Positions 1,212 through 49,028 of a DNA stretch of 56,346 nucleotides are shown piece after piece. Position 1 is the first letter of the stretch; each line of letters starts with the position of its first letter. Under the pieces are notes generated by a model. That model saw nothing but the letters and a program-made list of their open reading frames with translations. It had not been told where the DNA came from and made no database searches. This stretch comes from Rhizaria sp. SCN 62-66 (lineage: Eukaryota): positions 1 through 56,346 of the forward strand of contig MEDY01000177.1 in the NCBI GenBank assembly GCA_001724265.1, in the 5' to 3' direction. A program made the position numbers and the translations under genes.

Positions 1212-4200
1212 ATGCAGTCTGCCTCGCGGGCCGCCCGTTCGCTGGTGGCCCAGCTCAAGCGGCTATCCCCTCACAGCCCCGCAAACCGCGTTCATGACCT
1301 TCCATCACTCCGAAATTACTTTACTCGCACCAAGTCGATCGGAGTTGTACTGGTTTCACGGACTCCAGCGCCTGTGTCGCTCGTCCCACGCCGCACCATC
1401 ACCCGTTCGCTCCAGCTGTCAGCGTCTCGCCCAGTCCTCGCTCCCGTGTCCTTCGCCTCCCTCGCCACCTCCACAGCCTCCGACGGGGCCTCCCCGGCCC
1501 CCGCGCCGTTAGCCGCGCCCGCGAAGCTCGACTATTCTGACGCAGTCCCGTCCTCGACGCTCCGCGACTCGCTGGCGCTGCGGCAGCTGCTGTACGAGTT
1601 CCGCAGCCACGGCCATGCATACGCGCGGACGGACCCGCTTGCGCCCACGCTCGCCGCGCTCACGCGGCAACGCGCTCTGCAGCAGCAACAATAGCAGCAG
1701 AAGCAGCAAGCGCAAGAGCATGAGCATGAGAGTGCGGCATCGCCGAGCGCGGCAGCGCCCTTTGTCGCCCCCGTCACGCCGCTGGACCCGCCCGAGGCCG
1801 GCGGCGTGTGCCCACTGCTGCCCGCGCTGCTCAACGCGATGGCGCACTTTGGCGTGTCGGAGTACCGCGTGACGCCGGCCGCCAGGCGGCGCCGACGGGA
1901 GCGGCGAGAGCGCGCGCGCGCCGCCGCAGAGGCCGCGGTGGCAGCGGTCTCTGCCTCGACTACGGCGTCAGCACCGGCGTCAGCGTCTGGCGTCAGTCGC
2001 GGTCAAGGTAAAACTGCTGGTGCTGACGCGAGTTCTGGTGGCGTGTTGGGCGCGAATGAAGCTGTGCCGGTGTCGCTGGCGCGCACTGGAGAACAGGCTG
2101 AGAAGCTGCGGGCGCTCGAGCTCAAGCAGAAACAGCAACAGGAGCAGCTAAACGGTAACGACAATGACGACGACGACGATATCGACGACGATCGCGGCTA
2201 TCCCAACAACAGCAACGACATCGACTGCGACCAGAGCGATAACAGTGCTGCCATGGCAAACAACGCCCGTGGTGCGAGCGTAGACATCGCCTCGTCGCCG
2301 CCGCTGGCGCGTCTGGCGGCCGTGCTCGAGTCTGCGCCCGCGCGGCGCCCGTCGCGGCCGCCCACGGCGCGCGAGGAGACGATGCTGCGCGACGCCGGGC
2401 TGTGGCATCTGCTGCTGGAGCCCGCCACGCCCGTTTACCTCGGCGCGCAGCTGCTGCCGGGCTTCCACGCGCAGGATGCGGGCAACAATGGCGCCGATGG
2501 CGTCACTAACACCGCCAGCGCGGTTAATAGCGACGGCAGCGGCGGGAGCGGCGGGGGCTTGGTTGCGGCGAGCGCGAGCACAGACAAAGAGTGGTGGTCT
2601 GTGGGCGAAGTGCTGGAACTCATGCGTCGCGCGTACACCGGCCGCACGGGCGTCGAGTACGTGCACCTGGCCGACCGCGCGCAGGGACTGTGGGTACGCG
2701 ACCAGGCCGAGGCGGACGCTTACTACGCCATGATGCGGCAGAACTACCTCTACCTGACAGAAACGCTCACGCCGCAAAGCAACGCCACCGCTAGTCCGAA
2801 TGGACACAGCGCATCGAGTGCTCCGAGCGGAAGGTTTGGGGTCGGTGCCTCCGCCGCAGTTGCGAGGCGCGCGCTGGCGCCGTCGACGCTTGCGCCCGCG
2901 TTTGCGCATTTTGCGCACACGCACGGGATTAAGAAAGAATCGCAGTCAAACCCTGATGCTGCGACTGCAGCAACAAAGAGCACGGCAAACTCTAAGAGTA
3001 TCGATGGCACGAAGGACGGCGACGCAAAGGCTGCGGCCAGCGCCGCTAGTGCTGACCACGCAGAGGACTCGGCGGCGGCGAGCGCCACCCCTGCAGCTCT
3101 GACGCACGGCGGCGCCTTCACACGGTCGATCAGCTCGATGGCGTTCCTGGCGTCGCGCGCCGAGGCCGAGTCACCGGCGTCCTTCCTCACGCGAGCGCTG
3201 CGGTCCATCGCGGGCCTGCCTTCGCTCATCGCGCTGCTGCCGCAGCCGACGGCACCGCCGTTACAGCCACATTCACAGTCACCGGCGCAGCCGCAGTCGC
3301 CTGACTATAGCGCGTCTCAGAGCCCGACTAGCGCTCAAAGCGGTGTAAACGCAAGTCCGACTGTGAGTGGGAGTGGCACTGTCCGCAAGCCGCCGCCGCC
3401 GTCTCTGGCCCCGTCCGCCTCTGACCGGCTGGCCCTGCTCTCGGCTCTGGCCACCGCAGAGGCCTTCGAGACCGCGCTTCAGACGTCGTATCCCGGCGCG
3501 AAGCGGTTCTCGCTGGAGGGCGCAGAGGCGCTTGTGCCGCTTGTACAGGTGCTGTTGAGCGCGTCCGCGATCGGCTCTCCCGCACCGTGCATTAACAACA
3601 GCAACGCCGGCAACAGTAGTGATTTTACGTCATCCAGTGCTTCTGAGTCGAGTGTACTCGGTGCCAGTATCACCAATGCACCTCACACTGCGAGGGTCGG
3701 CGAGGTTGTATTTGGCATGGCCCACCGTGGACGTCTAGCACTGCTGGCGTGCGTTATGGGCAAAGCCAGCGAGGTATTCGCGCAGTTCATCTCTGGCGCA
3801 CGTGCTCCTTCTGTGACGAACAGCGGTGCGACCGCAAACAACACAGACGCAGATGGCAACGCGCTCGGTCCCAGTGCTTCTACGAGCAGCGTGAACGAGG
3901 CCGGCGATGTCAAGTATCACTTGGGAGCGCAAACCACAGTCTGGGTGCCAATTCCCTCAAACAACAACGCTAATAGTTCTGGCAGCACGACAGCAGCGCC
4001 TGATAGTGAGTGTGCTGACGAAGCTTGCACTGCAACTGTGCCATTGAAGCTGTCTCTCGTGCCCAACCCCTCGCACCTCGAACTCGTTGGGCCCGTCGTC
4101 GCCGGCGTCGTGCGGGCGCGGCACACGTACCGGCCTTACATCGACAAGCACTCCGTCTTTGCGACGGCCGACGTCAATGCCAGCGTAGGTGACAACAGCG

Positions 4201-7200
4201 GTGGCTCGGGTCCTGTAGCAGCGGGCGCCGGCTCTGTCTCCAGTCTCCCTCTCTCCGACTCTGGCTCCACCCCCGCGACCGAGCCCGGCGCCGGCGTGCT
4301 GGCCATCGTGCTCCACGGCGACGGCTCTTTTGCCGGCCAGGGCCTCGTCTCCGAGACGCTCGGCCTGACCGAACTCGCGCCCTACGCCGCCGACGGCGCC
4401 ATCCACATCGTCGTCAACAACCAGATTGCCTTCACGACGCCGCCGCACCACGGCCGCACTTCGCTGCACCCCACCGACGTCGCGCGCGTGGTCGGAGCGC
4501 CGATCCTGCACGTCAACGCCGACGACGTGGACTCGGTATACCGCGTCGCGCGGCAGGCGGCGGCCTTCCGCGCGCGCTTCAAGCGCTCCGTGATCATCGA
4601 CCTGGTGTGCTACCGCCGGCGCGGGCACAACGAGCAGGACGACCCGTCGTTCACGCAGCCCGAGCGCCACGCCGCGCTGGCGCGTCACCCCGCGGCCGCC
4701 ATCGCCTACGCGCGGCGGCTTGTGCGCGACGGCGTGTGCACGCCCGAGGACGTGATCGCGATTGGCGAGCGGGCGCGCGCGGCGGTCGCGGCTGCGCACG
4801 AGGCCGCGCGCGCGAGCGTCGACGCCGACTCCGCTGCACCGGCTGACGCGACTGATACTACAGTTGCTGACGAGAGGAAAGGAGCGGCTGAGAATAATAA
4901 TGCTGCGACCAAGGAAAATGCGAACGGATGTGCGAATACCTCTGAAGTTCCACTGACCCGCGCCGTCGCAGACGCGACTGGAGTCTCTCTCGCCCCGTCT
5001 ACATTCCTGGCTCAAAGGCTGTCTTACCAACCCCGTTTCGACACTTTTGGAAAACGGTTGTCGAGCGGTGACTCTCAGCTGTCTACCGCCGTTGCGATTC
5101 TTGAGCACGTGCTCGCCTGCTCCCGTGGCCGTTCCGCCCCCCGCACCGGTCTGCAGCGCTCCGAGGCGCTTGCAGTGGCCGAGGACCTGTGCACTGCGCC
5201 CAGCGGCGGGCACTTCCGGCTGCACCCCGGCGAGCTCACAGTGCTGCAGCAGCGGCGCCGCATGCTCGTCGACTGCGCGCGGCCCGTATCCTGGGCCGCA
5301 GCCGAGGCCCTCGCGTTGGGCGCGGTCGTGCGGGCGGGCGCGCACGTGCGGCTCACGGGGCAGGACGTCGAGCGCGGGACCTTCTCGCAACGCCACGCCG
5401 TCGTCGTCAACCAGGACTGCGAGGCCGAGAAGGTGACGCTACTGCACGGTGTGCGCACGCTGCCCGCGCCCGCCGCCGCGCGCCGCGACCTCGCCGGCCG
5501 TGCGGCCCCGGCGCCGGTGATTGCCAACAGTCCGCTGTCCGAGGCCGCCGCACTGGGGTTCGAATACGGCTACGACCTGGCGGCGGCGCCGCGGCAGCGG
5601 CTGGTGCTGTGGGAGGCGCAGTTCGGCGACTTTGCCAACTGCGCGCAGACGGTGATTGACTGCTACCTCGCCGCGGGGGCCGCCAAGTGGGGCGCGCGGT
5701 CCGGGCTCGTGGTGCTTTTGCCGCACGGGCTAGAGGGACAGGGCCCGGACCACTCGTCGGCCCGACCCGAGAGGCTGCTGCAGCTCGTCGACGAGCCCGT
5801 GTACACGCTGGACGCCGATAGCAACGGCAGCAGCGAGGTGAGTCTTGATGACGTCAGTGTCCTTGTCGAGAACGCTGCGATCGAGTCGCTGCGAAATTTG
5901 CGCTTTTCGCTCGGGCTCAATATCACTGCCGGCGACCGTGTAGCGGCGGATGGGCTGCGTGTGTTGTTGCGCGAAGGCCGTCGACGGGCGCGATTGAACT
6001 CTCCGCTCTCAGTTGCTGCTGCTTCCGCCACGGAGGCAGCGCCCGGCTTAGAGCTGGGGCTTGGACTGAGCTCAGGTCCGTTTGAGCGCGCTTCGCTGGG
6101 TGCGCAACGCGACATCAACGCTGGAGTGCTCGGACTCGGCTTCCGACTAAACTCTAACTCCAGCGACGCGACCACCACCAATGCAAGCATGAATGCGGGC
6201 AACACTGTGAACAGCTCGAGCGAGAACACGAACTGTGATAGCGAGGGCATTTGCGACGAGGACATCGACACACTCATGGCGCTTCTCTCCAACAACAACA
6301 CGACCGTTGACGACTACGGCGCACCCTCGTATTGCGACATGGCGTGGCGCCGCGCAGCCCGCTCCCTCCGCGCTTACACCGCCGCGCAGGCTGTGAACAT
6401 CGCCGTCGCATCTCCGTCTACGCCCGCACAGTATTTCCACCTGCTCCGCCGCCAGGCCGCGGCACCCACGGGCCCGCTATTCGTGCTGACGCCCAAATCA
6501 CTGCTGCACGACCGGGCCTGCGTGTCTGAAATGGCCGCGATGGGGCCCGGGACCGCGTTCGAGCCCGTGTTGGTGGAACGCCGCGGGGCCAGCATTAGTG
6601 CGGATGCGCTCTGCGACGGCGTCGGCTTGCTGACCGCAGAAGAGCTTCAAAGTATTGAGAGTGAAAACGTCGGTGACGACGCCGGTACTGGGTCTGGTGG
6701 TCGATCTGATGCTGGTGCTGATGATGGGACTGCGGTGGCGAAGGCCGCTGTCGTTGCTGTACGTGGCGCTACTCATGTCTGGTTTTGCACTGGCAAGGCC
6801 TACTACTCCCTTGTCCTGCCTGCGCTCGCGTCCCTCGCGAACTCTACTGTCTCAAAAAACCCTTCGCGGACCGCGGCGGCCGACGTCCTCGTCGTGCGCC
6901 TCGAGCAGCTCTCCCCGTTCCCCACAGAGTCCGTCGTCGCGCTGCTCGCCGCGGCGGGCCCGCAGGCGCGCGTGCGCTGGGTGCAGGAGGAGCCGGCCAA
7001 CCAGGGCTGCTGGGGCTACGTGCAGCCGCGGCTGGACGCTCTGCTGCGCGTACAACGATCGGCTCAGGTATTCTTGAGTGATGACGCGGCTCTCGACAGC
7101 AGTGGCGATATAAGGCATGTATGCGCGAGGGCTGGCGGTGTCCGGGTGGCGTACACAGGCAGGCCTGCCGCGGCCGCCGCGGCGGGAGGCTCCATGGCGC

Positions 7201-7283
7201 AACACAAAGCGGAGGAAGAAGCGATGCGCAGTATGTTAGTGCGCTCAGTCCTTGAGCACAAATATGTCTTTCCGAGTGACTGA
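1212..7283 (+). CDS. OGDH: 2-oxoglutarate dehydrogenase E1 component, mitochondrial (about 2023 aa; one in-frame TAG at 1692-1694)
   Basis: ORFs 1209..1694 and 1806..7283 share a frame and are separated only by a TAG. The first has an Arg/Ser-rich presequence and LLYEFRSHGHAYARTDPL (the OGDH N-terminal RGH..A.LDPL motif). The second has KRFSLEG, GMAHRGRL, GDVKYHLG, NPSHLE, HGDGSFAGQG..NNQIAFTT (ThDP motif), RRGHNE, GQDVERGTFSQRH, WEAQFGDF, HSSARPERLLQ and QEEPANQG. It ends TGA TGA. Confidence 0.93.
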
Positions 7284-7468: not shown

Positions 7469-8295
7469 ATGAACGCTGAAGACGCATTTGAAAAGGACGG
7501 TGAAGGCGGTAATGGTACGTATTTTTGCATTTTTGAAATAACACTGCTGTATTGCACACGGCGTCCCAACGCACTCACTAGTTAAGCCAACTCTTCCTTC
7601 CTTCATTGTAGACGGTCTGGGCGTCCCCGCGGCCGCTGCAGCGCGTTTAAAGCCACTACGTTACACCGCTGAGCTGGATATCGCCATTCTCGAGAGCGTT
7701 TTGCGCAACAATGTGTGCGTTGCGCGCCACGGCGCAGTCGCGGCCTCTTGGACCAACGTCGCGTCCGAAGTGCAGCCGCTGGTGCCTGACTCCGCGGCTC
7801 TGGTCGAGCCACGCAAGCTGCAGGACCGCCTTCGGCGCATGCTGGGACTTTTTTACACCGACAACATGTCCCCTATCGAGAACCACACTTCGCCCGCCCT
7901 CAACGAGCGCCGCCGTAGACTGATCGCGCAGATCGGCGAGCTCGAGTCGGCCCGCAAGCGCCACCGCGCACGCTTCCGTGGCGCCGGCGAGAACGCAGTC
8001 GCGCACATCCCGCTGCCGGGCATCGTGCCCGTCTTGCTGCCCACCGCGCTGATGCTGCACGACCAGGACGACGGGCACGCCGGCGGCCCGCTGCTCGCGC
8101 CGCCGCCGCTGTCGGCGTCCCAGCTCGCGCACCACCACCTGCACCCGCAATCTGGGCTGATCACCGGCGCCGGCGGCGACGAGCTGGCGGCGCTGTCGCT
8201 GTCTTCCTACGACGCCGCCGCGCTTGCAGGTATGTCATCAGGCGCGTCCTCCGTCTCTGACTCGGCCGCTGACTCCGCTGCCGACTCCTCCACAG

Positions 8296-8326
<31 letters not shown>

Positions 8327-9672
8327 GGGCTCCGCCGCCGTACCACCGACTGTCGCAGCCGCGGGCACGCCCGGCGCGGCGCTGTCGCTGGCGATCGCGG
8401 CCTCACAGCTGGGCTTGTCGTTCGCGCCCGCCGCGCTGTCCACGAGCGCGGGCGCCGAGGCGCTGTTCCGCGCGGTCTCGGCTCAGGTCGAGCGCGCGGA
8501 GCGGGAGCTGCAGGCGCGCATGCGAGTGCTGGCTGCGGCGCGCGCGCACGCCGTGGCGACGCTGGCGCGCGAGGAGGAGTAGCTGGCCGCCGAGGCGGGG
8601 CGTCGCCGCGACCGCGCGCGGTCCATGCTCGACGTCGCCAACGCCACGCAGCAGCCGCAGCAGCCGTCGCCGGTGCCGGGGCGCGAGGACCACGCGCACG
8701 CGCACGGACACGCGCATGCAATGGCGCTCACCCCGAGTCCCACCTCGGCCTCCAACGCACACCAGTCGCACGGCCAGTCTCACAGCACCCCCGCCGTGAC
8801 GGTTTCGGCCGTGGCGGCGGCGGCAGCCGCGGCGGCGGCGGCGGCATCGGCGAACGCGCCGTCCGCGCGCGTGCCCTTCCCCCTCGCCGTCGCGGCGCCA
8901 CCGTCTAGCGCAGTCTCGGCCGCGGTGTCCGACTCACGGCTCGCGGCCATGGCGGCGGCGGCGGCGGCGGCGGCGGCCAAGGCGGCCGCGGGGCCCGGTC
9001 CGGGCTCGGCCGCCGTGGGCCCCGGGCTTGGGTCCAGCGCGAGCGCGAGCGCAATCGCCGCGGCGGCTGCGGCCGCGACGGCAGCGGGCGGCCACCCCGG
9101 CGGCGGCTCCGGCAGTCACGGCCCCGACTAGAGTGGCCTGCGCTCCCTTCACACCAACAGCCACTCTCTCGGCAACAGCAGCAGTAGTAACAGTGGTGGC
9201 GCGAACAGCGCGAGCGGCCGCGGCGGCCGCGGCGGCCGCGGCGCTGGCACAGCCGACCCCAACGTTGGCGACAGCGGCGACAGCGGCGGCAACAGCAACA
9301 TCAACAGCAACAGCAACAGCAGGCAGTCTGCGCTCGCTGCGACCACCGCGACCGCCGCGACCACCGCGGCCACGGCGGCGGCGGCGGCGGCCGGAGCACG
9401 GCCGGCGCAAGGCAGGACACGCGCCGCCGCTGCGAACAGCAGCATCGCGCTGACGCCGACCGGCGCTGCGCTGGCGCTGCCCGCGCTTCCTGCGGTCACT
9501 GGCGCGGTGGCGGGCGCTGACGCCTCCGCTGCCGCTGCTGCTGCTGTGGGCCAAATGCTCGCAGCGCAGCAAGGCCTGATGCAGACGGAGCCGCCGCAAA
9601 TGCAGATGACGCTGCAACAACTGCAGCATTTGCAGCACTTGCAGCAGATCCAGCATCACATGCAACAGCAAC

Positions 9673-9703
<31 letters not shown>

Positions 9704-9707
9704 GTAA
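7469..9707 (+). CDS. Myb/SANT-like (trihelix-type) DNA-binding protein with Ala/Gln-rich tail; exons 7469-7514 and 7612-9707; in-frame TAGs at 8580-8582 and 9129-9131
   Basis: ATG 7469 and a phase-1 intron join into the frame shared by ORFs 7701..8582, 8625..9131 and 9507..9707. The N-terminal RYTAELDIAILESVL..RHGAVAASWTNVASEV..PRKLQDRLRRML resembles a Myb/SANT-like domain. It ends at TAA 9705-9707, or at TGA 9732-9734 if that TAA is not the stop. Confidence 0.7.
7515..7611 (+). other. Spliceosomal intron (97 nt)
   Basis: G|GTACGT ... pyrimidine tract TTGTAG|AC; AT-rich; splicing restores the frame (GAC). Confidence 0.8.
8298..8324 (+). repeat. (GCC)9 coding microsatellite (poly-Ala)
   Basis: Read directly from the sequence; one of many GCN triplet runs in coding regions. 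Confidence 0.9.
9663..9701 (+). repeat. CAA/CAG poly-Gln tract (13 codons)
   Basis: Read directly from the sequence. Confidence 0.9.
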
Positions 9708-12264: not shown

Positions 12265-15200
12265 TCAGCCTGACCCACTAAACAGTGTGACACGACGACC
12301 ACCGCCCCGCTGCAGTGCCTGCTCGGCCTGCAGCACTGGATCCGACGGCAGCAGCAGCCCGCGATCGAACCCTGGCGGTAACAGACTCACAGTCACGCTC
12401 TGCGATCTCGTTGCCGTGATGGTCGTCGCCGCAGACGCAGGCCCCGCCTCATGCTGACTGCCTGCCTCGTCCGCACCTGTACTGCGGAGGTTGCCGCCGC
12501 TGTGCCACATGCGCGGCCCGCCCTGTCCGTCGCCCTCACGGTCGAACTCGGCCTCCAGAGTCGCGCGTTCAAGCAACGCGCGCTCTCTTGCTGCCGCAGC
12601 CGCTGCGGCAGTCGCTGCTGCACTCGCTGCCTCAGCTGCCGCTGCTCCGGAGGCCGCGTTGTTTGCCGCCGCAGTGCCGGAGCCTGTGGTAAACGATGAT
12701 GGGTTTGTGCTGCTGCTGTTGCTGGAGTCAGTAGTTTGGGGATAGGCGACGGCGTAGTAGTAGTCAATCGCCTCCGCCTCGTCATCTTCTTGGTCTTCAT
12801 AATCATATTTCTCGTTGTAGTCGTCATAGTCTTCATCGTAATAGTAATCGTCGTCATCGTTCTTGTTGCCGCCCTTGATGATGACTGTGTTCTCAGAGTT
12901 GCGATTGTTTGTGGTCACACGGGCAGCAGGCGCGGTGCTGACATCACTTTCAACATTGCCTCTGTGGGCTGGAACAGCATGCGCGTCAACACCAGTGCTG
13001 CCCATGTTTTTTCTCTCGATCTCGTCATTGCTTCTGTCCTTTCTCTTTGTGTGACGCCTTTCTCTGTGCGCTGGCCCTCCACTTGAGCCGTCTCGTAGCA
13101 CGCCACCAACGCGTCGACGTCTGCGCTTGCGAGAGCGCTCATGTACGTGATCTGTGTCGTCGCTCGCGCTCATTCCAACGCTGCGCTCACTTTGACTGGG
13201 CCAGCCAGATTTGCTCCTCTACACTGATCCCGCGTTTGGTATCACAACCACGGGGCGCACCGCCTCCGGCACTGGCACAGGCACAGATACCGGGACAGGC
13301 ACAGGCACCGTGACTGTCTCGCTTACAGTCACCCCGCTCGTTTTGTTAGTGCGCGTCTTGTTCACGCCGATACTGCTCCACACAGCGCGCTGCGTGGCCA
13401 GCCTCTCTTTACCCGTGTTTGTGCCAATGACAGTGCTGTTGAGAGTGACAACAGCGTTCTTCAACGGCAAACCAAGGTTCCGCGGAACTCGCACTCTCTC
13501 CACGCCATCCACTGCGTCTTTGTCCCCGGCCTTGCGCAACGCCTTTGCGGTGTCGGCGGCAGACTTGCGGAGCTTTCCCGCAGCTGCAGCGGCAGCTGAA
13601 AATGGCTCGTCCGCGGCGACCGAGGCCCATGCGGCTGCAAGATCGCCCTCCAGTCCTGCGCGCGTTGGCAGCAGCTGCATCGGTTGTGACGCCGACGCCG
13701 GCGCGGACAAAGTCAACCCGGACTCAGATAAATTAGTCAACGTTGGTGGCTGTAAATCGCCTGTGAGCGTTTTTGCTCGGACGTCACTTGCTGGTGTCGT
13801 GCTATCAATGATGGAGCCGAGCGTGTCACTTACGGTGCTTTCAGCCGCTGCAACCGCTGCAGCTGCGAGTGTATTCGCGGCGGTGAACCCTGCCCATTGA
13901 CTTGTCACGTAGGCGACAGGCAGCGCTGCTCCGCTCTGCGTTGCAGTCTCGAGCTCAGCCGCGCTCAGCGCTCCTGTGCCCGCTTCGCTCATGACGCCCA
14001 GTCCGCTTTGCGCTGGGTGGATGTGCGGCGCACTGCTGAGCGTCCCCGCTGCCGCTGCTGCTGCTCGGTCATGGTGCGTCAGCCTAGAGCGCGGCCAGTC
14101 GTCCGGCGGCGGCACTGGCAGCGGGTCGCTGGTGCGTTTCCGTGCCGCGCGCAGCCGCAGCTCTCGGTTCCGCGCGCGCTCTCGCCACTGCGTCGACGAC
14201 ACGTGCGGACCCGGCCACGGCGCGTGCCACGTACCAGACCCGTGCCAAGGCGCCGGCGCGATTTCGCCAAGGGCTTCGGCGTCGGCTGCTGGCTCAGAGT
14301 GCGCTGCTGGAGTGGGGGGAGCGACTTCCGGGTGACCTGACTTGTGAAGTATCTCTGGCTCTGTCTGTGTTGCCTTTGACTTATAGTGCGGCTTTGGCTG
14401 TAGCTTCGGTTGCGGCTCTGTCGGTGACGGAGGCTGAGGCGGTCGGGGACGCGCAGAGAGCGCGGGCAGCGGCGACGGGAGCTCTAGTGGGAATGCACGT
14501 CGTGACTGCAACTGTGTCTGTGTCTGAGAGCCGCCAGTGCTGCCACCCTTGCTCTTGCGCGCCTCAAGTGCTGCGACCTTAGCCTGCGCTGAAGTAAGAC
14601 TGCCGGCGGAAGTTAAGCCGCCAAGACCCTACACATTTTCTTCGAGTAACACTTGTTGTGACTGTTGCAGCTGCTGCTTCTGTTGCCCGTGATGCGGATG
14701 TCTGTCACGATCGTGCTTATGGCCAAGCTCATGTTTTTGTTGCTTTTGTTGACTCTGTTTCTCCCTAGTCATCTACATTGCTGCGACTGTTGATAATGCT
14801 GGCTTGACGTTTGCCTCTGCTGCGACAGTAGCGGCGCGCGCCTGAAGCCGCATCATACCAGTCTGGCTTCCAAGCCTGCTGCGGGCCGCGTTGACCCACT
14901 CGGCTTCAATTGAGTCGTCAACAGCTTCTTCGACTGCGTCCATAACATTGCTATCCGCAATCGCATTTTCGGCATGATTTTCACTGTCAACATCTGTGTT
15001 GGCCGCGCTTTCTACCTCGGCCTCGGTCTCCGTTCCCGTCTGTGCCGCGCTCTCGTGCATAACTCCACCATTGCTGTCAAATACAATACCGTGCTCAGCG
15101 GCCCAGTGCTCCTCGCGCTCGTGCCTGCGCTCAGCCACAGCCTGAACATACTCTAGCGGCACCGTCAGAGTACCCGCGCCGACGATCGCACTGTTCACTG

Positions 15201-32600: not shown

Positions 32601-32996
32601 GCCGCGTGTACCAGTAACAACACGAGCACACCTGTGGTTTGTAGGGAGTTCAAGTCCTCCACTAGCAGTCGTCATGGCAGCGCCAGCGGCTGCAGCAATA
32701 TCAGTGGCTATGATACAGCTTTAAGTGTCAACAACGATGATGAGGTTGGGGTGGGAGACGACTCGATTCAACTCGAGTTGGTCTTTGCGCAATCGGGTGT
32801 GATGCAACAGCTGCAGCAACAACAACGTGAACAGCCACAGCACAGCGCAAATAAAGGGCGTTTTAGCGGGAAGGACTTTGATGAAATGCGGAAACGCGTA
32901 ATGCGGCGCTCAGTGTGCGCCATGCTCTACAGGCCGTCGCCCAGTGCAGTGAAAACAAAGGAGCACGATCATGACGAGGCAGGCAAGAACAATTAA
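29616..32996 (+). CDS. Transmembrane RING-H2 E3 ubiquitin ligase-like protein (in-frame TAG at 32520-32522)
   Basis: CAIC-x81-CGHCFHRGC..WL....RCPLCR is a RING-H2 pattern, preceded by several N-terminal hydrophobic helices. ORF 32634..32996 continues the same frame after the TAG to a TAA at the edge of AT-rich DNA. Confidence 0.8.
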
Positions 32997-35309: not shown

Positions 35310-35579
35310 CCAACGGAGGCGCTTGAAAGGGGAGAACGCTAAAAAAAGCAATCCATTTGGAAACAAGGCGTTAGTAACTATATGAATCTGGGAGCATTTT
35401 GCGATAAATCATTATTTGTATAGATCTATAGAGAAAACTAGGTAGCTCGGCCGGAGGCGATCGAGAATAGTCCAGACCGAAAGCTCCGAATGAAGATATG
35501 ATGGTGATATAGCAAACGTAGCAAGATATTATAAAGGTGAAATTGAGAACATAAGGCCGTAAACCTCAGACACAGCTTC

Positions 35580-38207: not shown

Positions 38208-41200
38208 TTATTCTAAAGGAATAATGTTGTCTTCATCGACGTCATCATCGCACGCGTCATCGGCATCCTCCATGTTCAAGCCCGCGTCGGCAGCCGCATC
38301 GTCGTCTTCGTACTCGTAAGCGATCCCATCTTCGTCCTCGTCCTCGTCCTCCTCTTCGTCGTCGCCGTCCACGAACTGCACCGTGTCGGTCACGCGCCAT
38401 CGCAGCCGCGGCCACGCCCCCGCCACGCGCGCGTCCTCTACGGTACCCGCGCCGCCCTCTGGCCCCGCGGCGCGCAGCAGCGTCGTGGCGGCGGTGGCGG
38501 CGGCGCGCGGGGGCAGCAACACCGCCGCGGCGGCCATAAACACATCTGTCAGCGCGCCCAGGGGAACGGCGTTCAGCGCGGCAACGGCTCCGCTGCTTCT
38601 CGCTGTGTCAGAGGTCAACGCAATCTTGCGTTTGGCCCATTTGCTCTTGCTCTTTTTCGCAGCCATCAGCGCGTTCAAGTGCCTATAAGGCTGGATCTCG
38701 TGGTTCTTATGTGGGCGCTGTAGCTGCACATGCTGCTGCTTCGCTCCACCCTGTGACTGCGGCTGCTGCGGTGCACTGCGCGATAGGTCAGGCGCATCCG
38801 TTGCAGCGCGCTTGGTTCCAGCGCCAACGCGCGCTTGCTCTGTCGCATGGGCGTTAGCGTTCGCAGTTGCCCGCGCTTTCGCTGCCATTGTTGCGTCGAC
38901 CATCTTGCTATCATGAGCGCCTTCGCCCTCGTCGTCGTCAGAGTCCGCGACAGTGTGGCGCGGCGCTAGACGGAGCGCAAACTCGCCCGGGCGCGCGGGC
39001 CCCGGCGGCAGCAGCACGCGCCCGCACAGCGTCGCGCGCGTCGCCGGCGTCGCGCCGCAGCGACAGTCGAGCCCGTGTCCGCACGTGTTAACGCAGAGCG
39101 CGCACATGCCGAACCCGCGCGGCACCCCGTGCGCACAGTTGGTCTCGCCCGCGACCGCATCCGAGGTCAGTGTGCGGTGGTGATGCTGCGCCTCGCTCAG
39201 CATGACTTCAAGGTCGCCGTCGCGCGCGTTCGCGGGCAGCATGCACGTCAGCAGGGCGCGGTGCAGCGCGAGTCCTGCGCTCTCCGCTGCCTGTTGTGTG
39301 TGCGCCTGTGCCTGTGTGCCTGATGTGACTGCGGACGGCCATGCTGCGAGGTCGCAGGCGGGCCAGCGGTCCACGCCGGCCGCGCGCGCCGCCGCGGCCT
39401 GCGCAGCATCGGCGACCGCGGATGCACTCGGCATCACCACCGTCGCCGCAGCTGCAGCCGCACGGTCCGGTTCGCAGTGGTCAAGCAGACGCACGTAGTC
39501 AAAGTCGTCGACCTCCGCAGTGTCACCATTCTCCCCTGTCTCTGCTGTGCTCAGGCGCACCGCGGCCAGGAATGCAGTCACATCGGCCTCGCTCAAACCA
39601 GGGTTTGCACTCAAAACATCATGAGCAACAGCATTTGCAACGGCGCTGGGATTCACAACAGCAGCAGACGGATCCGCGTCTGCTGCAGGCAGCGAGAGTC
39701 CGAAGAACTCTTCAGCAGCGCGGCCTGACAACTCGACCCACACCGCATCCGGCGGCGGCGCTTCTACCGCGGGCTCCTCCACCACATGCCCGCCCAGCGC
39801 CTCGTCCGCCATTGCGGCGGAGATCGCGGCGGCGGCCGCCTCAATCTCGGCCGCGGTCATCGCGCCGTCGCCGTCGCTGCCTGCGCCGGAGCCCGCGGCG
39901 GTCGCCAGCGCCTGGTTACCATACACTGCAGCAGCGCGCGCGGCGTTGGTGGTCTGCGCGGCGGCCGCGTCGCCCACTGTGTCGGGGTCGGACAGCCGCA
40001 GCGCGATGCGCCACCGCCAGCGCAGTGCGTGGAGGCAGCGGGGGCACACTCCCGGGCACGACGCCGGCAGCGGTAGGTGTGTGGACGCGGCCGACATCCT
40101 CTGCAGCAACGCGAGCGGCAGTTGCGAGACGACGGCGGCGGATGTGGCACCGCGCCTGCTGTGCACAGCGGCGAACTCGTGCCATGTGCGGATGGCGGCG
40201 TTGCGCGTCGCGTAGCGGCGGCAGCGGCCGCAAAAGGGTCGTGAAAAATCTGACGCAGCGGCGGGCAAGTGCGCAGTTACGCAGCCGAGCACGCGCCGCA
40301 GTCGCGGATGCAGCCGCAGCATCGCGCGCGCGACTGACGGCGCGATGGCCTTGGCCTCCCGTTCGCCCAGCTGCAGCTGCGCAATCTCTTGCTCACGCGC
40401 GCGCGTCTTTTCGGTGCAATCCGCACCAGGTGCGTGCAGTGCAGCGGCGCTGGCATCTAGATCGGTCAGAAGAGTGTCGAACTCGACGGGCGCCCACGCG
40501 CCCGCGCTGTCTTCGCCGATCTGCATCGCCTCTTCGAGATGCTCGCGCGCCGCACCCAGCAGCGTCACCAGCCCGGCCGGCGTCAGCGGCTCGCAGTCGG
40601 CAGCGGCGGCAACAGCTGCAACCACGGCGCTGGTAGCAGTGGCGTTAGATTCCACGGCAACATCGTCAACGATCGAAGCAGACGTTGACTCTTCGTCATC
40701 GCCCTTGGCATCGCCATATGTATTGGCATCAGCATCGATGTTGTCATGAGAGTCACGATCATGCATTGCATTGCGTTCGTTAACATCTGCGCTACTATCA
40801 TCCTTGTTATCACTTTGCGCGCCGGTCCGGGCAAGCCGCGCAGCACGGCGTGTTTGCCTGCGCGCCTCGGCTTCAGCGAACCGGGCTGCCTGGGCTGAAA
40901 TCAACGTCGCCGCTGCAGCGCGAGCGGCGACAGTTGCTACAGCGCCCGTGGCCACAAAAGATCCAGGGCCACCGCGCGCCTGTGCGGGCGGCGGCTGACC
41001 GTACCTATGCTGCGGCAGCGGTTGTGGCGCCGATGCGGCGGGCACGTAGCGGTAGTTACGCAGCGAGCGCCGCAGATACCGGGCGAACGCGACTGCTGCA
41101 GTTGTGGGTCCCTTCTCCGTCGTCGCCTCGGTCTTCACAACCACCGCACCGCTTGCATCTTCACTGGCACTCGCGCTTGAGTGTGACTGGCGGCTTGGCT

Positions 41201-44200
41201 GGCACACCATGGTCGGCGGCGGCGTCGGCAGTGTGCGTGGTGCGCCGTGCGCGAAGAACGCGGCCTGGAAAGCCCCCACCAGCGCGGCGCCCAGGCGCGG
41301 CAGCGGCGCGGACAGCGCGACAGCGGGCCACAGCAGCGGCAGTCCCCGCCAGCACTGCGGCGCAACGGTGTCGCAGCAATCCTGGTCCACGGGCGTGGGG
41401 GCGCTGCATGGCGCCAGGAGCGAAAATGAAACGACCGCACCCGGGCCCGCAACGCGCGCGCTGCACGGCGCCGCTGACTCCGCGACAACGCCGCCAGACG
41501 CGGAGTACGTCGCGGTGTAGGTGGGCAACAGGACGGGAAACACGGCACCGCGGCTCGGGCGCAGCGCCGCAGGCAGCAATGCGCGTGCGCGGGTGCACGC
41601 TGCAGACATCGCGGCAATGCGTGCAGATGTGCGAGAGTCTGTAGCTGCGGCTTCAAAAGCAGCAAGCGCAGATCCGTCCCAAACCAGTGCGACGGACAGC
41701 GGCGGCGCGGTGGCGTTGCTCGCCGGGGGTGTGAGCGTCAACGCAGCCAGTACAAGGGCAAAAGCGCGTGACGAGGGCGCGGCTGCTATCGTCGTTGCAG
41801 CAGAAGTCGCTGCAGCGGAGGGAGCAGCAGTCGCAGCGGCGGCAACCTGGCCGAGGGGCAGCGCGAGGCGGTCAAGCAAAGGCAGAGGATAAAGCCATGG
41901 CAGATTTGATGCAGGTAAAGGAAACGAAAGCGCCGCAGCGGCCGCAGAAGCAGCGGTTTCCTCATCTTTGTCCTCACCGTCGACAGCGTTGTTGCTATTG
42001 CAACTCTCGTCGACGTCAGAATCAGCGTCAGAGTCGGGCGCAGATGCAGCGACAGGCTTCGTTGTTGCATCAACAATACTGCCATTTGCGCCCGCAGTCG
42101 CGTTCGCAGCACTGCTGCTTCCATCTTTATCACCATCTCCCATGTTCGCCCCCGCAACAGCACTCCGGACGCTTATAGCAGCAGCAGGCTTCGCGAGAGG
42201 CCGCTCCATCGGACTGACCGTGGCCGCGTGGCGCGCCCACTCGCGCACGAGCTCACTGAGCTTGACACGCGCGCCGGGGGGCACGACGCCCGCTGCGACA
42301 ACCATGTCCGCGCCCGTCACGCCGCCGCCACGCCCACTCGCGCGCGCGTTAGCCGCGGCGACACCGCAAGAGCTCTCGGCGTGCATCGCGGCCGCGGCAG
42401 CAGGAACGGATGAGAAGACGGGGCCGAGCGCGGCGGCCCAGCGCAGCGGCGCGGGCACCACAGTGGAGCCCGTCGCCGATACAGCCGCGAGCGCGCTGCA
42501 CTGCATCATCGCGTCAAACGCGTCAATGCACACGAGTACGCAGTCACTGTTCTCATGATCGCTGGCAGTCGCATCAAGCGAGGTTGCTGCCGCGACGGCG
42601 CACGAGGCCGCCGCGGCCGTGGCGTCAGCGGCCGCCGCAGCGGTGGAGAGTGTGGCTGCGTGCCAGGCAAGCGCGCGCTGCACGCGCGCATAGTCCTCCG
42701 CGTCCGGCACCGAAGGTTCGGTGCGGGTGTCAACGCGGAGCTGCAGCGGGCGACTCGCGCGCAGCAGAGTCGGGACAATGCCCACGCCCGTGCTTGCAGC
42801 CGCACCTGCGCTCACTCCTGCAGCTGTGACTGGAGCTGGCGATAAGGACTGTACCTGTGGGGCCTGAGACTGTTTGTTGCTGCGCTTGCCCCGGCCCCTG
42901 GCACGAAGCACCGGCTCCGTCGAGTTCGCGTGTGCGCCTCCACTTGCACTGTCATTGTGTCTGGCGGCCGCGAACGCGCACGCAAGCGCGCGCGGCACGG
43001 CGGCCAGCAGAGACGCGGGCTTCGCAGCGTCGGCCTTGTTCAGCGTGCGGAACGACGTCTTGGGCGGCGTGCAGAACAGCCCGCGATTGCGGTCGTATGT
43101 GAGCCGCAGTTGCACGGGCTCGCCCGTCAGCGCCGCCGCAGGCAGCGCGCGCAGCACGAAGTCGGACTCGGCCACGAACACGCGTAACACGGTGCCGGTG
43201 CGCGGTAGAGCGCGCAGGGGGAGAGCCGGCGGGGGCAGCGTGCGGCCGCCCGCGCCGGCGCCCACACTGGCGCTGCTGGTGTTGTTGCTCGCGGCGGGAG
43301 TGTTGGTGTAGTCCGGCGGATGCAGCGGCACAGTGGACGGCATAATAGAGCCGTCCCACACATCGACCACGGCCTCGGCATTGCTGTTGGCGTAGCTCGA
43401 CGCTGACGTGTAGCGCAACACAGCGACGAGCACAGTGAAAAACGTCTGCGAGCGCACGTTATCAGTGAACGTGGCCGCGCCCATCTCAGCCAGCGAGATG
43501 AGCGCCGCCGTCGTAGGCCGCACGTCGCCGCCGCTACTCACGCTGCGGGACGCGGCCTGCGCGGCTGCCACGGCGCACGCGCCCGTCCCGCTCGCGACGG
43601 GCGCCAGCAGCGCGGGAGGTACTGGCCAGCGCACGCAGCAGGGGAACGCCGGGTGCGCTAGCCCGGGCGGCACCGCGGCGCGCGCGGCGGCGGCGACGGC
43701 GAGCGCGGCCACCTCGGCGCGCGCGTCGGCGCGGCCCTCGCTGTGCGCTTGCGCCGAGGTCATTTGCGACTGCGCGAGCTCCTGCAGCGCCGCGAGGGGC
43801 GGCAGCGCGGCGGGCGCGGGCAGCCACGGCGGCGCGAGCAACGGCAGCCACAGTCGCGGCGCCTTGCCGCTCGCGCGTGCAGAAGCCGGTGCAGCTACGC
43901 TGGATGAATTCGGCGAGTTCACGGTGGTCGTTGGAGCGGCAGCAGCAGCGGCGGCCGCGGCGGCTTGGTTCGCGGTGCGCAGCGCTGCAACGGCTGTCTT
44001 GGCGGCGGACGCGGCGACCATGCACATCTCGGCGTTTTGCGCCGCGGACACCGTCGTGCGCGCCAGCACGTGCACGACGCGCCCGGCCACCGTCCCCGCG
44101 GTCGCCGCCGAGTCGTCCACTGGGTGGCCGTAGGCGTCGAGGGTCTGGGTCGCGGGTGGGGGTGCAGCGGCAGCGCCGCGGGGGCGCGGCAGCGGCGCGG

Positions 44201-47200
44201 GTATAGGCAGCAGCAGCGCGGGCAGCGCCTCGGCAGACTCCAACAGCAGCGCATAGCGCTCTACGGCGTCGTCCGCCGTCGAGTCCAGGTCAGCACTCGC
44301 ACTTAAGCGACTGGTGGTATCGTGAGCGTTGTTGACAGGGAGCCTTGTGAGGAGAATGCTGGCAGGATCTAAGTACCCGTCTAGGGAGATGACATCGAGG
44401 TCAAGCACGGGATCTAAGTAGAACCCATCTCTATAGCCGCCGCGGAGCTCCCAGTGTGCGCCGTCCCACAGCCCCGGTCCGTCACGCACCGCTGGGTGCG
44501 GACACAGGTACTGCAGCAGCGGCACCAGCGGCCGCAGCCGGGCCGCGCTGTGTGCGCCGTGGCTCGACGGCACGCACGCAATGGGCCGCGAGTCGCCGGC
44601 GCCGACGCCTTCGCCCAGACCGGCCGCGGCGCCGCGCGCGGTCGCCGCGGCATTCGCGACCGCGCCGCGTAGCACCGCGCGCTCGTGCTCACGGTCACTC
44701 ATCACTAACGCACTCGCACGCGCGCTCGCACTTGAAATCGGGGAAGGGTCTTGCGTCATCGTGAGCGTGAGAGTAAGTGACAGCGCAGCTGCGACGACAG
44801 CGTCAAGTGCGCGCTGCAGCGCGGCGGGCGCAGCGGCTGCTAACACGTTCTCAACATGCCACGCCAGCGCTGCAGGGGTTGCGAGAAGCGGTGGAGTGAC
44901 GGTGCCAGCGCTCGCGTCGCCTGCGTGCGACGGCGGCTGCGACGGCGGCTGTGACGGCGGTTGCGACTGCGCGAGAGAGTGCGACTGTGTGCGCCCTTGC
45001 GGAGAGCCAAGCTGAGTCCGTGCGCGACGTGCGGCAGCAGCGGTGATCGCAGGCTTCGAGCCGCCGCCACCGCCCCCGTGGAGAGCGCTGTTCGTGGCAA
45101 CGGCGCGCACGACAGAGGCGACCGCAGCTAGCGACGCGGGCGCGGGCGCGCGGGCGAGACGGCGGCACAGCGCAATAAACGGCTCCGGTCCCGGCTGCCC
45201 GCCGCCGAAAACAGTCCTGTACTCGACGTCATCATCGTCGTCATCATCGTTCTCCACGTCAGCGTCGCGCATGTTCGCGCTCGCGTTCATGTTGTTAAAA
45301 TTGCTGTTATTGTTATTCGCGCCGACTACCGCAGCGGGCGAGACTGCGCCGTGCAGCAGCAGCCAGCGCGCGGCGAGGCGGCGCAGTGGCGCGCGCGCGG
45401 CCGGCGCGGCGGGGTCACTCAGCACCGCCAGCAGCGCGCGCGCGGGTGCCGTGGACAGCGCGGCGGCGGCGGCGGCGGTCAGCGGCGCAGGCAGCGGTGA
45501 GGGCAGAGGGACCATCAGCTGCAGAGAGAGGAACAGACTGAGCGCCTCTGCAGGCAGGGGCAGCAACAGTGCGGGGCGCGGCGCCAGCGCTGCCGCGAGA
45601 GGGCCCCGCGCAACTGTGGTTGTAGTAGCTGCAGAGGCACCGAAGGATGGCCGCGCTGGGGGACCGTATGGGTTTGGAGGCCTTAGTGCGTTGAAGCTGC
45701 CGGTGGCAGGCTGTGGTGTGGCGTTGAACTGAGGAACCGGAGCAGTTGACGGTGTCGCGTGTGATGTCGGAGGAGGCCTACGAGCATAGATGCTGCCCAG
45801 CCCTGACGAAGCAGTCACAGCAGGTGTTCCAGTAGCAGTAGAAGCAGTAGCGCTCGTGGATATAGCTGACGCACGCTCACTGTTGCCGCTGCTACTATCG
45901 GTGCTGATGTTTGAAGACTCTGCAGCAGTTACTGACTGTGGCTGCGACTGTGAGAGGTCAAAGTCAAGCCGCCTCACTGGGTCCGCCTGCGACTGCTGTG
46001 ACTGATCTTGCGTCGTGCTCGCCGATGTAGACTGCGTCGATTGCGACTGCGACTGGGCGCCGAGCGGCCTGCGCGGGCCTGCGATGGCGGCGAGCGTCGC
46101 CGGCGACGCGCTGCGGATGCTTGTCGACATCGCATCGTCGCCCTCGTCGCTCAGGCTGTCGCCGCGGGTGCAGCGCTGATAAGTGTCGCCCGGCAGGCGG
46201 TCGGTCACGCACGGGCCGTACCCGCTGATGATGCCGCGGGACCCCGGAGTCGCGCCGGCGTCCTGGCTCATCGCCGCCGCGGGAGCGCGGCTGCTCTCGC
46301 CAGTGGAGCTGTGCAAGGCCACGCGGGAGCGCGGGCCGCGGACACCGCCTGTACTTTGCGCAGCAGCAGCAGCAGTATATCCGGGGCCAATCACCCCGAC
46401 GCTGCTGTCGTTGCTGCTGCTACTTGAGTTGCCTTTCGAACTTTCGGTCGTCGTCGGGCTGTAGGCGACGTCAAGACTGTTGATCGCATCCTGGCCCTTC
46501 TCCTCGCCGTCACCCAACGCTCGTCGCCACCGGCGCTCACTGCTATCGCTACTACTGCCGTCGCCCTGGCGCGAGCCCAGGACAGTCTCCGCATCAGCAG
46601 CGTTCGCGGACACAGCAGCGGCGGCAGTGGAGCCGGCGCCAGGGCTCGAGCCAGAGTCCGAAGACAGCGAAATCGCGTCTCTGTCGCAGTCGCCACGGAG
46701 GCTGCGCACTGCAGTTGCGGCAGCTGCAGCGGGGGCAGCGGATGTGGTGAACGGCTCCAGTGGCGGCGGCTGCGACATAAACTGCATCTGTGACTGAGAG
46801 TCAAATTGCTGCTGCGATGGTGCCACGCCAGCTTCAGAGCTTGCGCCCGCATCGGTCATGGCAGCGCCGGCGGCTGTGGCTGCGTCGGTTTCAGTTGCTG
46901 GCTTAAACGTCAATTCGGATTTGACCTCATCGCCGCGGACTTTACTGTCAATACTCTCCTCTTGCTTGGGAATCACGACCTCCAACACCTCCAAATCGCT
47001 GTCATCGTCATCGCTGTCGTTGTCACTTTCAGTCTCGGAGTTTGCCGCAGCGGGACACCCGCGCGTCGCTTGCGCTTCTTGAGCTGCAAAGGTTGCCGTT
47101 GATGGTGCTGCTGTCGCAGACGCAGCAGAAGTCTCAGCTGTAGTATCACCTTGACTGGGACTGCGTTTCACCTCATGAGGCTCATCATGAGCCTTTTCTT

Positions 47201-49028
47201 GTGCGAGCTGTTGTTCTTGTTGTTGCTCTTGTTGCTGCTAATCTTGTTGATGCTGTTGTTGCTGATGCTGTTGATGCGAGCGGTGTTGCGTTTGCTCTTG
47301 CTTCACACACACATCCGTGTTACCGTGCGCATTGTTCGGACCACCATAGCCGTTGTGGCCGTACGCGTTGTAGTTGCCGTACTCGTCGTAACCACTCTCG
47401 CCGTCGCCGTTGCTGTTGTTGCCGTAGTTGCCCCTGCTAAGCGCAGCCGCCATCGCGGTGGGCCCTATCACCGACACGACATCGAGCCCCTCGGCCGCCA
47501 TCGCGCTGACCACGTGTTCCACCCGCGAGTTGAACAGCGCCTCGGCCAGCGACACGCACCGCAGCGAGGAGAAGTGTTCCAGCATCGTCCACGGTGTGCG
47601 CCGCTGCGGAACCAAAGCCGCGCCGCCGGGTCCTGGTGAGCCCACGGCCCCCGGCACAGTGCCGAGGCCGCCGGTGCCGATGCCAGAGCCGACGTGGGTG
47701 TTGACAACAGCGAGCTGGAGCCTCAGCATCGCCGCGGACGGCGCCGCGCGCTGGCCGTCCCACGCGTCCGCTCCCAGTGTCGCCCTCGCGCTCGCACTTC
47801 CACCAACATTGCCAGGAGTCGTACCGGTAGAGTTGGTGTTTTGCGCGCGTGCGGCCATCGCTGCCTCAAGCGAGCCCTCGCGCGGTCCACGCGGGTACCT
47901 GCGCCGGTCATGCGCGTCGAGCGCGGCCTCATACGCGCGAGTCTTTGCGGCCGGCACGGCCTGGCGGTGCGAGTGGTACGAGTGGGACGCGGGCCCAGTG
48001 CGTTTGTGGTAACGCTCGCCCACGCGTACCAGCGCCCAGCACTCGCGGTACACGCAGTCCGCGGCGGCATCACCGCCGTCGCCGGAGTTGTTCAAGTTGA
48101 TCGAGTTATTCGAGTTGTTCAAGTTGTTTGAGTTGTTCACGTCGTTTTTAGTGTAGAACGACGGGGGAGGGACCAGGTCGTCCCAGTGCACCGGCAGCGG
48201 CAGCGGCCCCACGCGCGCCGCGGCGGCAAACACGGCGGCCTCGTCGTCCTCCACCTCGGCGAAGCCGCGCTCCTCGCCCGGGTCGCGGCCGGTGATGGCG
48301 GCGGAGAGAGTGGCGAGCGCGTCGGCGTAGGCGGGGTGTTCGCGGTAGTACTGGCGCACCGCGCGCGGCACCGGCGCGGCCAGCTCGCACACGTCCGCGT
48401 GTAACTGCTGCTGCTATTGCTGTGGCTGTTGCGTGACGCGGAGGGGCGGGAGCAGGGGGTACGCGCGCAGGACAGTCCACGCCGAGCCTGAGATCTTGTT
48501 GACCGTGATCTGCGGCCGCTCAGTCTTGCTCGACAACGAAGCGTTGTGCAGACACAGGATGTCCCCCGCGGCCATGGGGATAAAGTTCTCGGCGTACGGG
48601 AGGAAGAAGATGACCTGGAGGTCGTGCGAGTAGCCCGTGTCGCCGCCGCGGGCCGCGCTAGCGCGCGAGAGCGAGGCGTCGGTGAGGTACAACGTGATCT
48701 TCAAGTCGCTGCCGCTGGTCCGGCTGGGCACCGCGAGCACGGGCGAGGTCACCATGCCAACCATGCTCACCGAGAGGAACTTGTCGGCGTCGCGCGCGCC
48801 GCGGAAGCGCGCGTTGGGGGGCAGGCCGTTCATGCTGTTGCGGTTCTGCTGGTTGGTCTGGAGCTGATGCCGGCTGAAGGCGTCCGCCAGCTCGACCACT
48901 TCTTGCAGGGTCAGGAAGCCGGTCGGCGCGCGGAACCCGTCGTCAAGATTGGGGTGGAACGCGCCGGGATGGCTGTGCGGAGGCGCGTTACCGGGAGGCG
49001 CGAAGCCGCCCGGGAAGCCGTTGAACAT
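38208..49028 (-). CDS. POT1: Giant POT1-like telomeric ssDNA-binding OB-fold protein (about 3606 aa; in-frame TAGs at 48414-48416 and 47238-47240)
   Basis: ORFs 48414..49028, 47238..48392 and 38208..47171 form one frame split by two TAGs in poly-Q. The N-terminal VSMVGMVTSPVLAVPSRTSGSDLKITLYLTDAS..LQVIFF...E.FIP..AGDILCLH..SAWTVL resembles POT1 OB1. Two VWDGS-containing OB2-like units follow, then a C-terminal CGRC..CPRC..WRIALRLSD..LSGRAAEEFFG zinc-ribbon OB fold. TAA stop. Confidence 0.72.

Follow-up and report, generated by a model that had tools for sequence, protein, structure and literature searches.

The DNA examined here, contig MEDY01000177.1 of assembly GCA_001724265.1, forms a window of 56,346 bases (the whole stretch analysed, with 62% GC) in which GC-rich genes are separated by AT-richer spacers. 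It encodes a set of eukaryotic proteins that includes eS24, NPL4, a POT1-type OB fold, F-box, RING and ankyrin proteins, Nas2, glyoxalase II, an M48 peptidase and 2-oxoglutarate dehydrogenase E1 (OGDH) with an N-terminal extension. Six genes, coding for OGDH, a Myb-like protein, a large membrane protein, an ankyrin-repeat protein, a RING-finger membrane protein and a giant POT1-like protein, contain internal TAG codons. An original prediction, made from the letters alone, had listed ten such codons in these six genes and proposed that TAG is a sense codon while TAA and TGA remain stops; all ten are present and in frame (Table 1; TAGs on the minus strand are named in the text by the lowest base of the codon). 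We conclude that UAG is very probably a sense codon in the nuclear genes of this eukaryote, with UAA and UGA terminating, and that the residue it specifies is most likely glutamine.

We counted codons in 15 coding segments, each taken from its first plausible ATG. The 14,371 codons include 10 TAG, 0 TAA and 0 TGA, which agrees with the predicted lack of internal TAA and TGA and means that internal TAA is not as common as internal TAG. Were internal stops to follow their six-frame shares, with TAG at 0.21, all ten would be TAG with P = 1.7e-7. The standard code, under which the TAGs would be untranslated and due to assembly errors, pseudogenes, in-frame introns, separate genes or RNA editing, therefore has to account for interruptions that are TAG in every case, with no frameshift, TAA or TGA among them, and for ORFs downstream of the TAGs that are always in the same frame. 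It has in its favour that CAG-to-TAG is the commonest nonsense route. Across the segments TAG occurs at about 0.7 per 1,000 codons, and nine shorter segments contain none. Four more TAGs (17556, 17502, 29580 and 29586) fall within stop-to-stop ORFs when TAG is read as glutamine. These were not counted as sense codons, since each lies either 5' of the first ATG or within acceptor-like, AT-rich sequence; the first TAG of the 17500..17556 pair is preceded by a pyrimidine tract resembling that of a splice acceptor.

Open-frame length was dropped as a test of TAG translation after a six-frame control, in which 10 TGA and 10 TAG codons had at least 150 open codons on each side. Off-frame and antisense ORFs are long as well in DNA of 62% GC, so ORF length alone proves nothing, and long chance ORFs of this kind are a point on the side of the standard code. 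The earlier description of the genes as open for kilobases with only TAG inside thus holds for the absence of TAA and TGA and is partly true by construction. Coding frame was scored with a codon-usage model trained on TAG-free ORFs and applied to the 100-codon flanks of each TAG in six frames. The TAG frame was the best of the six in 17 of the 20 flanks. The three misses were the upstream flank of the Myb-like TAG 9129, where an antisense frame was marginally ahead (0.38 vs 0.35), and the downstream flanks of the membrane-protein TAGs at 14773-14775 and 13219-13221, in a lower-GC gene in which the model separates frames weakly. At the RING TAG 32520 the frame was best of six on both sides, and downstream of it this frame has 0 stops in 100 codons vs 1–9 in the other frames.

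The strongest support for translation of the TAGs comes from relatives found among public metagenome proteins, where orthologues cover two of the ten TAGs, those in the ankyrin (28344) and OGDH (1692) genes. Searching with the non-ankyrin part of the ankyrin protein identified an orthologue, P0260, at 56% identity (62% over the aligned N-terminal part). P0260 and its cluster mate P0265 are colinear with the ankyrin gene and end at the same position, and the start methionine of P0265 lies upstream of both the repeats and the TAG column. The alignment (A1) is gap-free over the TAG, whose column is flanked by an invariant K and an invariant L, and a Pfam Ank_2 match to residues 58–148 of the ORF also spans it. 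In the case of OGDH, the orthologue P0003 aligns as one ORF to residues 63–163, which include a conserved N-terminal motif and precede TAG 1692, and then to the catalytic domains after the TAG, continuing to near the C-terminus. The TAG itself falls in a polyQ insertion absent from P0003. Because it precedes all three catalytic domains, a product ending at this TAG would be without them. The TAGs are thus real DNA and in frame, and the coding sequence that holds them is continuous as a single protein in orthologues. Database gene models are cut short at the TAGs, as a standard reading predicts: the OGDH model (P0002) has 1,746 residues vs about 2,023, and the ankyrin model (P0259), which begins beyond the TAG, is missing the first two and a half repeats. 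Against that reading, the orthologues are continuous across both sites.

Introns that happen to contain a TAG were considered by comparison with two spliceosomal introns in the NPL4 gene, defined by orthologue alignment (tblastn of the orthologue P0257). Both are GT..AG and AT-rich, and the second, which is in frame, carries TAA at 54091, TGA at 54100 and TAA at 54163, the pattern shown by untranslated sequence in this DNA. The neighbourhoods of the TAGs have a GC content of 0.47–0.78, vs 0.33 and about 0.38 in these verified introns. There is no GT dinucleotide in the 60 nt upstream of TAG 1692, so a GT..AG intron there would have to remove conserved residues. The TAG sites are not introns: the verified introns are AT-rich, and one of them has in-frame TAA and TGA. 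The OGDH presequence, high GC and introns of about 100–180 nt from which a possible further independent lineage had been argued were all recovered, as the N-terminal extension, 62% GC and introns of 134 and 177 nt.

The same DNA is present in metagenome runs from bioreactors, wastewater, microbial fuel cells and activated sludge, in six studies, and one of these runs may be its source. Contigs from a study other than that of the possible source (X3) show 0 differences over 1100-5161, 12114-13360 and 13332-17626, and this identity confirms TAGs 1692, 13219, 14629 and 14773 in independent DNA. A variant strain (X4) has 14 differences in 12482-16303 (3,822 nt), none of them at TAGs 13219, 14629 or 14773, and a further contig (X5, 14160-14722) spans TAG 14629. 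Retention of the TAGs in independent assemblies and in the variant strain speaks against assembly error. One contig from a polyA library (X8, 14328-14669) spans TAG 14629-14631 with 0 differences; it keeps the TAG unedited, which is weak evidence against RNA editing, as DNA carry-over is possible. Recurrence of the TAGs in independent DNA was accordingly borne out for four TAGs and for three in the strain, while persistence in mRNA is hinted at for one TAG by one polyA contig. Of the 71 differences and 189 joints in the comparison, 40 and 15 are listed; TAGs 8580 and 9129 lie outside the listed long pieces and may have a variant or joint, and stretches without RNA-library contigs carry no evidential weight. 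Among the listed differences, 28 (mainly from X4) lie within the genes for OGDH and the membrane protein, with 10 synonymous and 18 non-synonymous changes, a balance too weak to serve as proof of purifying selection downstream of the TAGs. GCN/CAG repeats at 8898-9454 and 16696-17252 attract hundreds of foreign contigs, with a depth of 200–1,280 vs about 6 elsewhere; these depth peaks and most of the listed joints were set aside as repeats shared with other organisms.

We placed 16 gene ends in the window, of which 11 are TAA, 5 are TGA and 0 are TAG, with GC falling downstream of each. The claim that ends use TAA or TGA only and coincide with a drop in GC therefore stands for the ends placed in the window, with 16 ends (11 and 5) in place of the 17 (12 and 5) first proposed. 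Since the ORFs used for these ends were delimited by TAA and TGA, we searched separately for TAGs at which coding-like sequence gives way to non-coding sequence. At a strict threshold the window contained 0 terminator-like TAGs, vs 3 TGA and 4 TAA. A loose threshold gave 11, of which seven are antisense to genes, one is off-frame, one lies past the TGA of OGDH and two are the membrane-protein TAGs. Three terminators were verified with orthologues: the TAA of the ankyrin gene and the TAA of NPL4 match orthologue C-termini exactly, and the TGA of OGDH does so within a few residues. The core of the prediction, sense TAG with TAA and TGA as stops, is upheld by the orthologues that cross two TAGs, the retained TAGs, the 0 internal TAA or TGA and these terminators.

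Table 1 Features of the window, in order of position
Feature	Positions	Strand	Remarks
In-frame TAG before eS24	286-288	-	immediately before the start codon
OGDH gene	1212..7283	+	about 2,023 codons; Pfam E1_dh, Transket_pyr, OxoGdeHyase_C; TGA 7281-7283
TAG, OGDH	1692..1694	+	inside CAG/CAA run, in low-complexity insertion
Myb-like ORF	7542..9707	+	no Pfam match; TAA 9705-9707
TAG, Myb-like	8580..8582	+	directly after three GAG codons; frame best of six, both flanks
TAG, Myb-like	9129..9131	+	low-complexity region
Large membrane-protein ORF	12265..17499	-	no Pfam match; TGA 12265-12267
TAG, membrane protein	13219..13221	-	flanked by open stretches of 469 and 317 codons
TAG, membrane protein	14629..14631	-	in frame
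TAG, membrane protein	14773..14775	-	in frame
Two uncounted TAGs	17500-17502, 17554-17556	-	AT-rich stretch upstream of membrane-protein coding part
Coding-like ORF	17547-18542		upstream of membrane-protein coding part
Ankyrin-repeat protein gene	23040..28544	-	about 1,834 codons; TAA 23040-23042
TAG, ankyrin	28344..28346	-	within second ankyrin repeat; residue 104 of 1,871-residue ORF
RING-finger membrane protein gene	29616..32996	+	Pfam zf-RING_2; TAA 32994-32996
TAG, RING	32520..32522	+	157 codons ahead of TAA
Glyoxalase II gene	34212-35408	-	directly downstream of Nas2 ORF
Nas2 N-terminal domain ORF	35580-35951	-	123 codons; TAA end
POT1-like giant protein gene	38208..49028	-	about 3,606 codons; TAA 38208-38210
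TAG, POT1-like	47238..47240	-	start of Q-rich stretch in which E has period 4; flanked by 391 and 3,009 open codons
TAG, POT1-like	48414..48416	-	in CAG/CAA run
NPL4 gene	52775-54981	+	
NPL4 intron 1	52883..53016	+	134 nt; GT..AG; overlapping stretch 52904-53013 has GC 0.38
NPL4 intron 2	53992..54168	+	177 nt; GC 0.33; GT..AG
NPL4 terminator TAA	54979..54981	+	coincides with C-termini of P0245, P0246 and P0257

Several of these genes have unusual features of their own. Many low-complexity insertions (poly-A, poly-Q and N/S-rich) bring the OGDH E1 to about double its normal length, and some of them are common to P0003 (1,636 aa); gap columns make up 21% of the alignment of the two. No Pfam match was obtained for the N-terminal OGDH domain, although the conserved N-terminal motif aligns with P0003. 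A scan of metagenome contigs with OGDH gave three loci at about 30% identity and did not recover the window's own contig. A metagenome contig of 68% GC (L004) carries OGDH at 1846-5618 in at least seven exon-like pieces in differing frames; it was rejected as a same-lineage gene, being an intron-rich distant relative of no use for the code question. Two further OGDH E1 proteins (P0125 and P0135), one of them from a marine protist transcriptome collection, carry EF-hand domains, an unusual architecture unrelated to the TAG finding. The POT1-like protein is unusually large for its type: its Pfam POT1 OB fold, of the telomere-binding kind, occupies residues 111–214, upstream of both TAGs, and is joined to over 3,300 further residues, mostly alanine-rich, with no other Pfam domain. 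The membrane-protein gene probably has a 5' exon and an intron, its coding part being preceded by the AT-rich stretch with the pyrimidine tract and, beyond that, by a coding-like ORF. The Nas2 ORF consists of the N-terminal domain, no PDZ part was found, and with the glyoxalase II gene next to it the Nas2 gene model is tentative. The part of eS24 in the window (95 codons) is without TAG.

Reading UAG as sense while keeping UAA as a stop would call for a cytoplasmic CUA-anticodon tRNA that reads UAG and not UAA, and for an eRF1 with weakened UAG recognition that would let this tRNA win. TAG is rare and found mostly in long, low-complexity, fast-evolving proteins, which is as expected for a codon that was recently captured or is poorly decoded. 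Several results weigh against reading UAG as sense. ARAGORN found 0 tRNA genes in the whole window and there is no eRF1 gene in it, so that both steps of this mechanism are inferred. The 16 gene ends are a small sample, in which finding 0 of 16 TAG has a probability of 0.023 at a TAG share of 21%, so that TAG may still end some genes elsewhere. The codon-usage score of the membrane protein is about 0 downstream of TAG 14773-14775 and negative downstream of 13219-13221; with the model at or below zero, the case for the TAGs of this gene rests on a frame open for 48 + 469 + 317 codons, in a region where other frames have 1–8 stops per 100 codons. Support from RNA comes from one contig covering one TAG, in a library that may contain DNA.

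The identity of the residue was approached through the context of the codons and through the one TAG column that is conserved. For three of the ten TAGs, two or more of the four neighbouring residues are Q; the same holds for 23% of Q codons, 2.3% of L codons, 1.9% of S codons and 1.6% of E codons. Treating the TAG sites as a random sample of the sites of their residue, a three-class context model gives about 200:1 for Q over E and about 200:1 for Q over L, and the odds against Ser are about 470:1 in favour of Q. The TAGs said to sit in CAA/CAG runs were confirmed as 1692, 48414 and 47238. Glutamine, which had been put forward as the probable residue, is therefore the best single guess by codon context, and is in tension with the lone conserved column. 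Several points count against it. Tolerated CAG-to-TAG transitions in polyQ would mimic a Q context under any assignment; at the sole conserved TAG column, in the ankyrin protein, P0260 and the more distant P0262 both have E and P0264 has Y, for which Glu is favoured over Gln by a factor of about 17; and TAG 8580 follows three GAG codons.

The conserved column and the GAG codons make the case for the strongest alternative, that UAG is sense and means glutamate with UAA and UGA as stops, which we regard as possible, if on the unlikely side. In 1,495 well-aligned columns from two orthologue pairs, an E of the window faces an orthologue E in 61 of 85 cases, and the corresponding figures are 2 of 47 for Q and 0 of 187 for L of the window. 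One G-to-T substitution in a GAG codon would account for TAG 8580, which comes after GAG codons, and likewise for TAG 47238, at the start of a Q stretch in which each fourth residue is E. On the other side, the glutamate assignment depends on one conserved column, two TAGs lie squarely within CAG/CAA runs, and the context odds, which hold under random sampling, come to roughly 12:1 for Q over E when combined with that column. We thus assign to glutamine, the most likely residue, somewhat more than half of the weight, to glutamate rather under a third, to leucine a very small share and to other residues the remainder. The fuller proposal that an aerobic, GC-rich, possibly rhizarian protist of wastewater reactors reads UAG as glutamate and stops at UAA and UGA is accordingly tentative. 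Such a code is unreported for nuclear genomes in the literature compared, as far as the accessible parts of these sources extend (PMC5304391, PMC11687900, PMC10553269; all three are cited below for those parts).

It is doubtful that UAG is dual, context-dependent or partly reassigned, being read through in the present genes and serving as a terminator in others. Ambiguous stop/sense codes are known from ciliates and Blastocrithidia, in the accessible parts of the literature, the sample of gene ends is limited to 16, and the rarity of TAG (10 in 14,371 codons, none in the nine shorter segments) would fit inefficient decoding. TAG is nevertheless found at 0 of these 16 ends, and the TAGs lie far from the 3' ends of their genes. 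Partial termination at residue 104 of 1,871 in the ankyrin ORF would waste most of the product, and the OGDH codon stands ahead of every catalytic domain.

Leucine, the meaning of UAG in the rhizarian exLh, would be of interest if the host were itself rhizarian. For the zinc-finger/MPN part of NPL4, Plasmodiophora brassicae provided the only named protein among 13 matches (145 bits, 44% identity), alongside closer relatives at 71%, 59% and 50% identity; fungal and human NPL4 from the PDB scored 62–75 bits over the same stretch, and no green-plant NPL4 was among the 13 matches. The eS24 protein scored 93–96 bits against its best-matching ribosome entries and 61–73 bits against another set, which we take to be apicomplexan, kinetoplastid, Trichomonas, Giardia and Euglena ribosomes. 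These similarities are a weak hint of an affinity with Rhizaria, and suggest that an apicomplexan or kinetoplastid host is unlikely. OGDH homologue searches carried no taxonomic signal, their best named matches being from bacteria and vertebrates; an Rfam scan of the window gave 0 hits and no rRNA, and genome-contig scans with P0246, P0265 and a 40-base word of the window found no relative. The best Protein Atlas match for NPL4 (score 0.76) was to an unrelated zinc-finger cluster and was discarded.

Beyond the NPL4 match to Plasmodiophora, leucine has on its side the consensus of ankyrin repeats in general, in which the position of the TAG is Leu. We set this consensus aside because the homologues of the family itself show E, E and Y there. 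With 0 of 187 window L residues facing E, and with the context odds given above, the conserved column does not favour leucine, which had been named as an alternative at such columns. The code of exLh does combine UAG as Leu with UAA and UGA as stops, but UAG is abundant in it (384 in 71 genes, PMC5304391), vs about 0.7 per 1,000 codons here, and we consider a leucine meaning quite improbable. Least probable of all is the standard code with untranslated TAGs, which is very hard to reconcile with the uniform TAG interruptions, the AT-rich verified introns with TAA and TGA inside, the continuous orthologues and the recurrence of the TAGs in independent DNA.

To our knowledge, UAG and UAA nearly always change meaning together. 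Nuclear reassignments of UAG alone have been described in exLh (Leu) and Iotanema (Gln) (PMC5304391) and in Scotinosphaera (Ser), Protocruzia, Hartmannula and Trochilia (Gln) and a TARA phyllopharyngean lineage (Leu) (PMC11687900); the available part of the latter source makes these a handful of cases, comprising one rhizarian, one fornicate, one green alga and a few ciliates. The closest parallel is the fornicate Iotanema spirale, in which UAG is Gln and makes up about 8% of Gln codons while UAA is the main stop (PMC5304391). The two have in common that UAG alone is reassigned and UAA still terminates; UAG is used sparingly in Iotanema too, and Gln, its meaning there, is the leading candidate here. 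Unlike that anaerobic metamonad, the present organism has a presequence-bearing OGDH E1, an M48 peptidase and GC-rich DNA, and TAG would account for less than 2% of its Gln codons if it means Gln (10 vs 557). The sainouroid exLh (Sainouroidea), with UAG as Leu and the stops UAA (56) and UGA (15) (PMC5304391), shares with it a non-ciliate, UAG-only code in which TAA exceeds TGA among terminators, possibly along with rhizarian ancestry if the weak hint above is followed. It differs in that Leu is disfavoured and UAG rare here, and in its source, exLh having been found in an insect and the present DNA coming from wastewater and bioreactors.

The UAG-only ciliates (phyllopharyngeans and Protocruzia) show a code change of the same class, in which UAA firmly remains a stop. 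Ciliate genomes are typically AT-rich, and in composition and contig architecture the present DNA would stand apart from them, with its 62% GC, a contig of at least 109 kb, AT-rich introns of 134–177 nt and giant low-complexity proteins. Scotinosphaera, with UAG as Ser and UAA as a stop, is like the present case in being UAG-only outside the ciliates, and unlike it in that Ser is disfavoured here by context and by the E/E/Y column. The oligohymenophorean ciliate PL0344 reads UAG as Glu and UAA as Lys (PMC10553269, PMC11687900). It has in common with the present organism that UAG as Glu is the second candidate here, and is set apart by its sense UAA, since UAA ends 11 of 16 genes in the window. 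These traits argue against assigning the host code to the ciliates, to Iotanema or to the Leu-decoding exLh. Searches of open full-text literature, covering main texts and with subscription journals mostly outside their scope, listed no GC-rich wastewater eukaryote with a UAG-only sense code. It is therefore probable that the window comes from a new lineage with a UAG-only reassignment, a further case of a known type of code change.

The finding has a practical side for annotation. In addition to the OGDH and ankyrin models cut at TAGs, the public model of NPL4 (P0244, 372 residues) is affected by standard-code calling. Because public models are truncated or split in this way, eukaryotic bins from wastewater metagenomes need code-aware annotation. 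If UAG is indeed sense in this organism, it would be a further independent case from which to learn how UAG and UAA can be told apart by eRF1 and a CUA-anticodon tRNA, and would bear on whether GC content or polyQ-rich proteomes favour the capture of UAG and on the age of such reassignments. Should UAG mean Glu, this would be a new, independent, non-ciliate origin of decoupled UAG and UAA meanings. The case would in either event be that of an aerobic, GC-rich, intron-bearing protist that recurs in engineered water systems and might be culturable.

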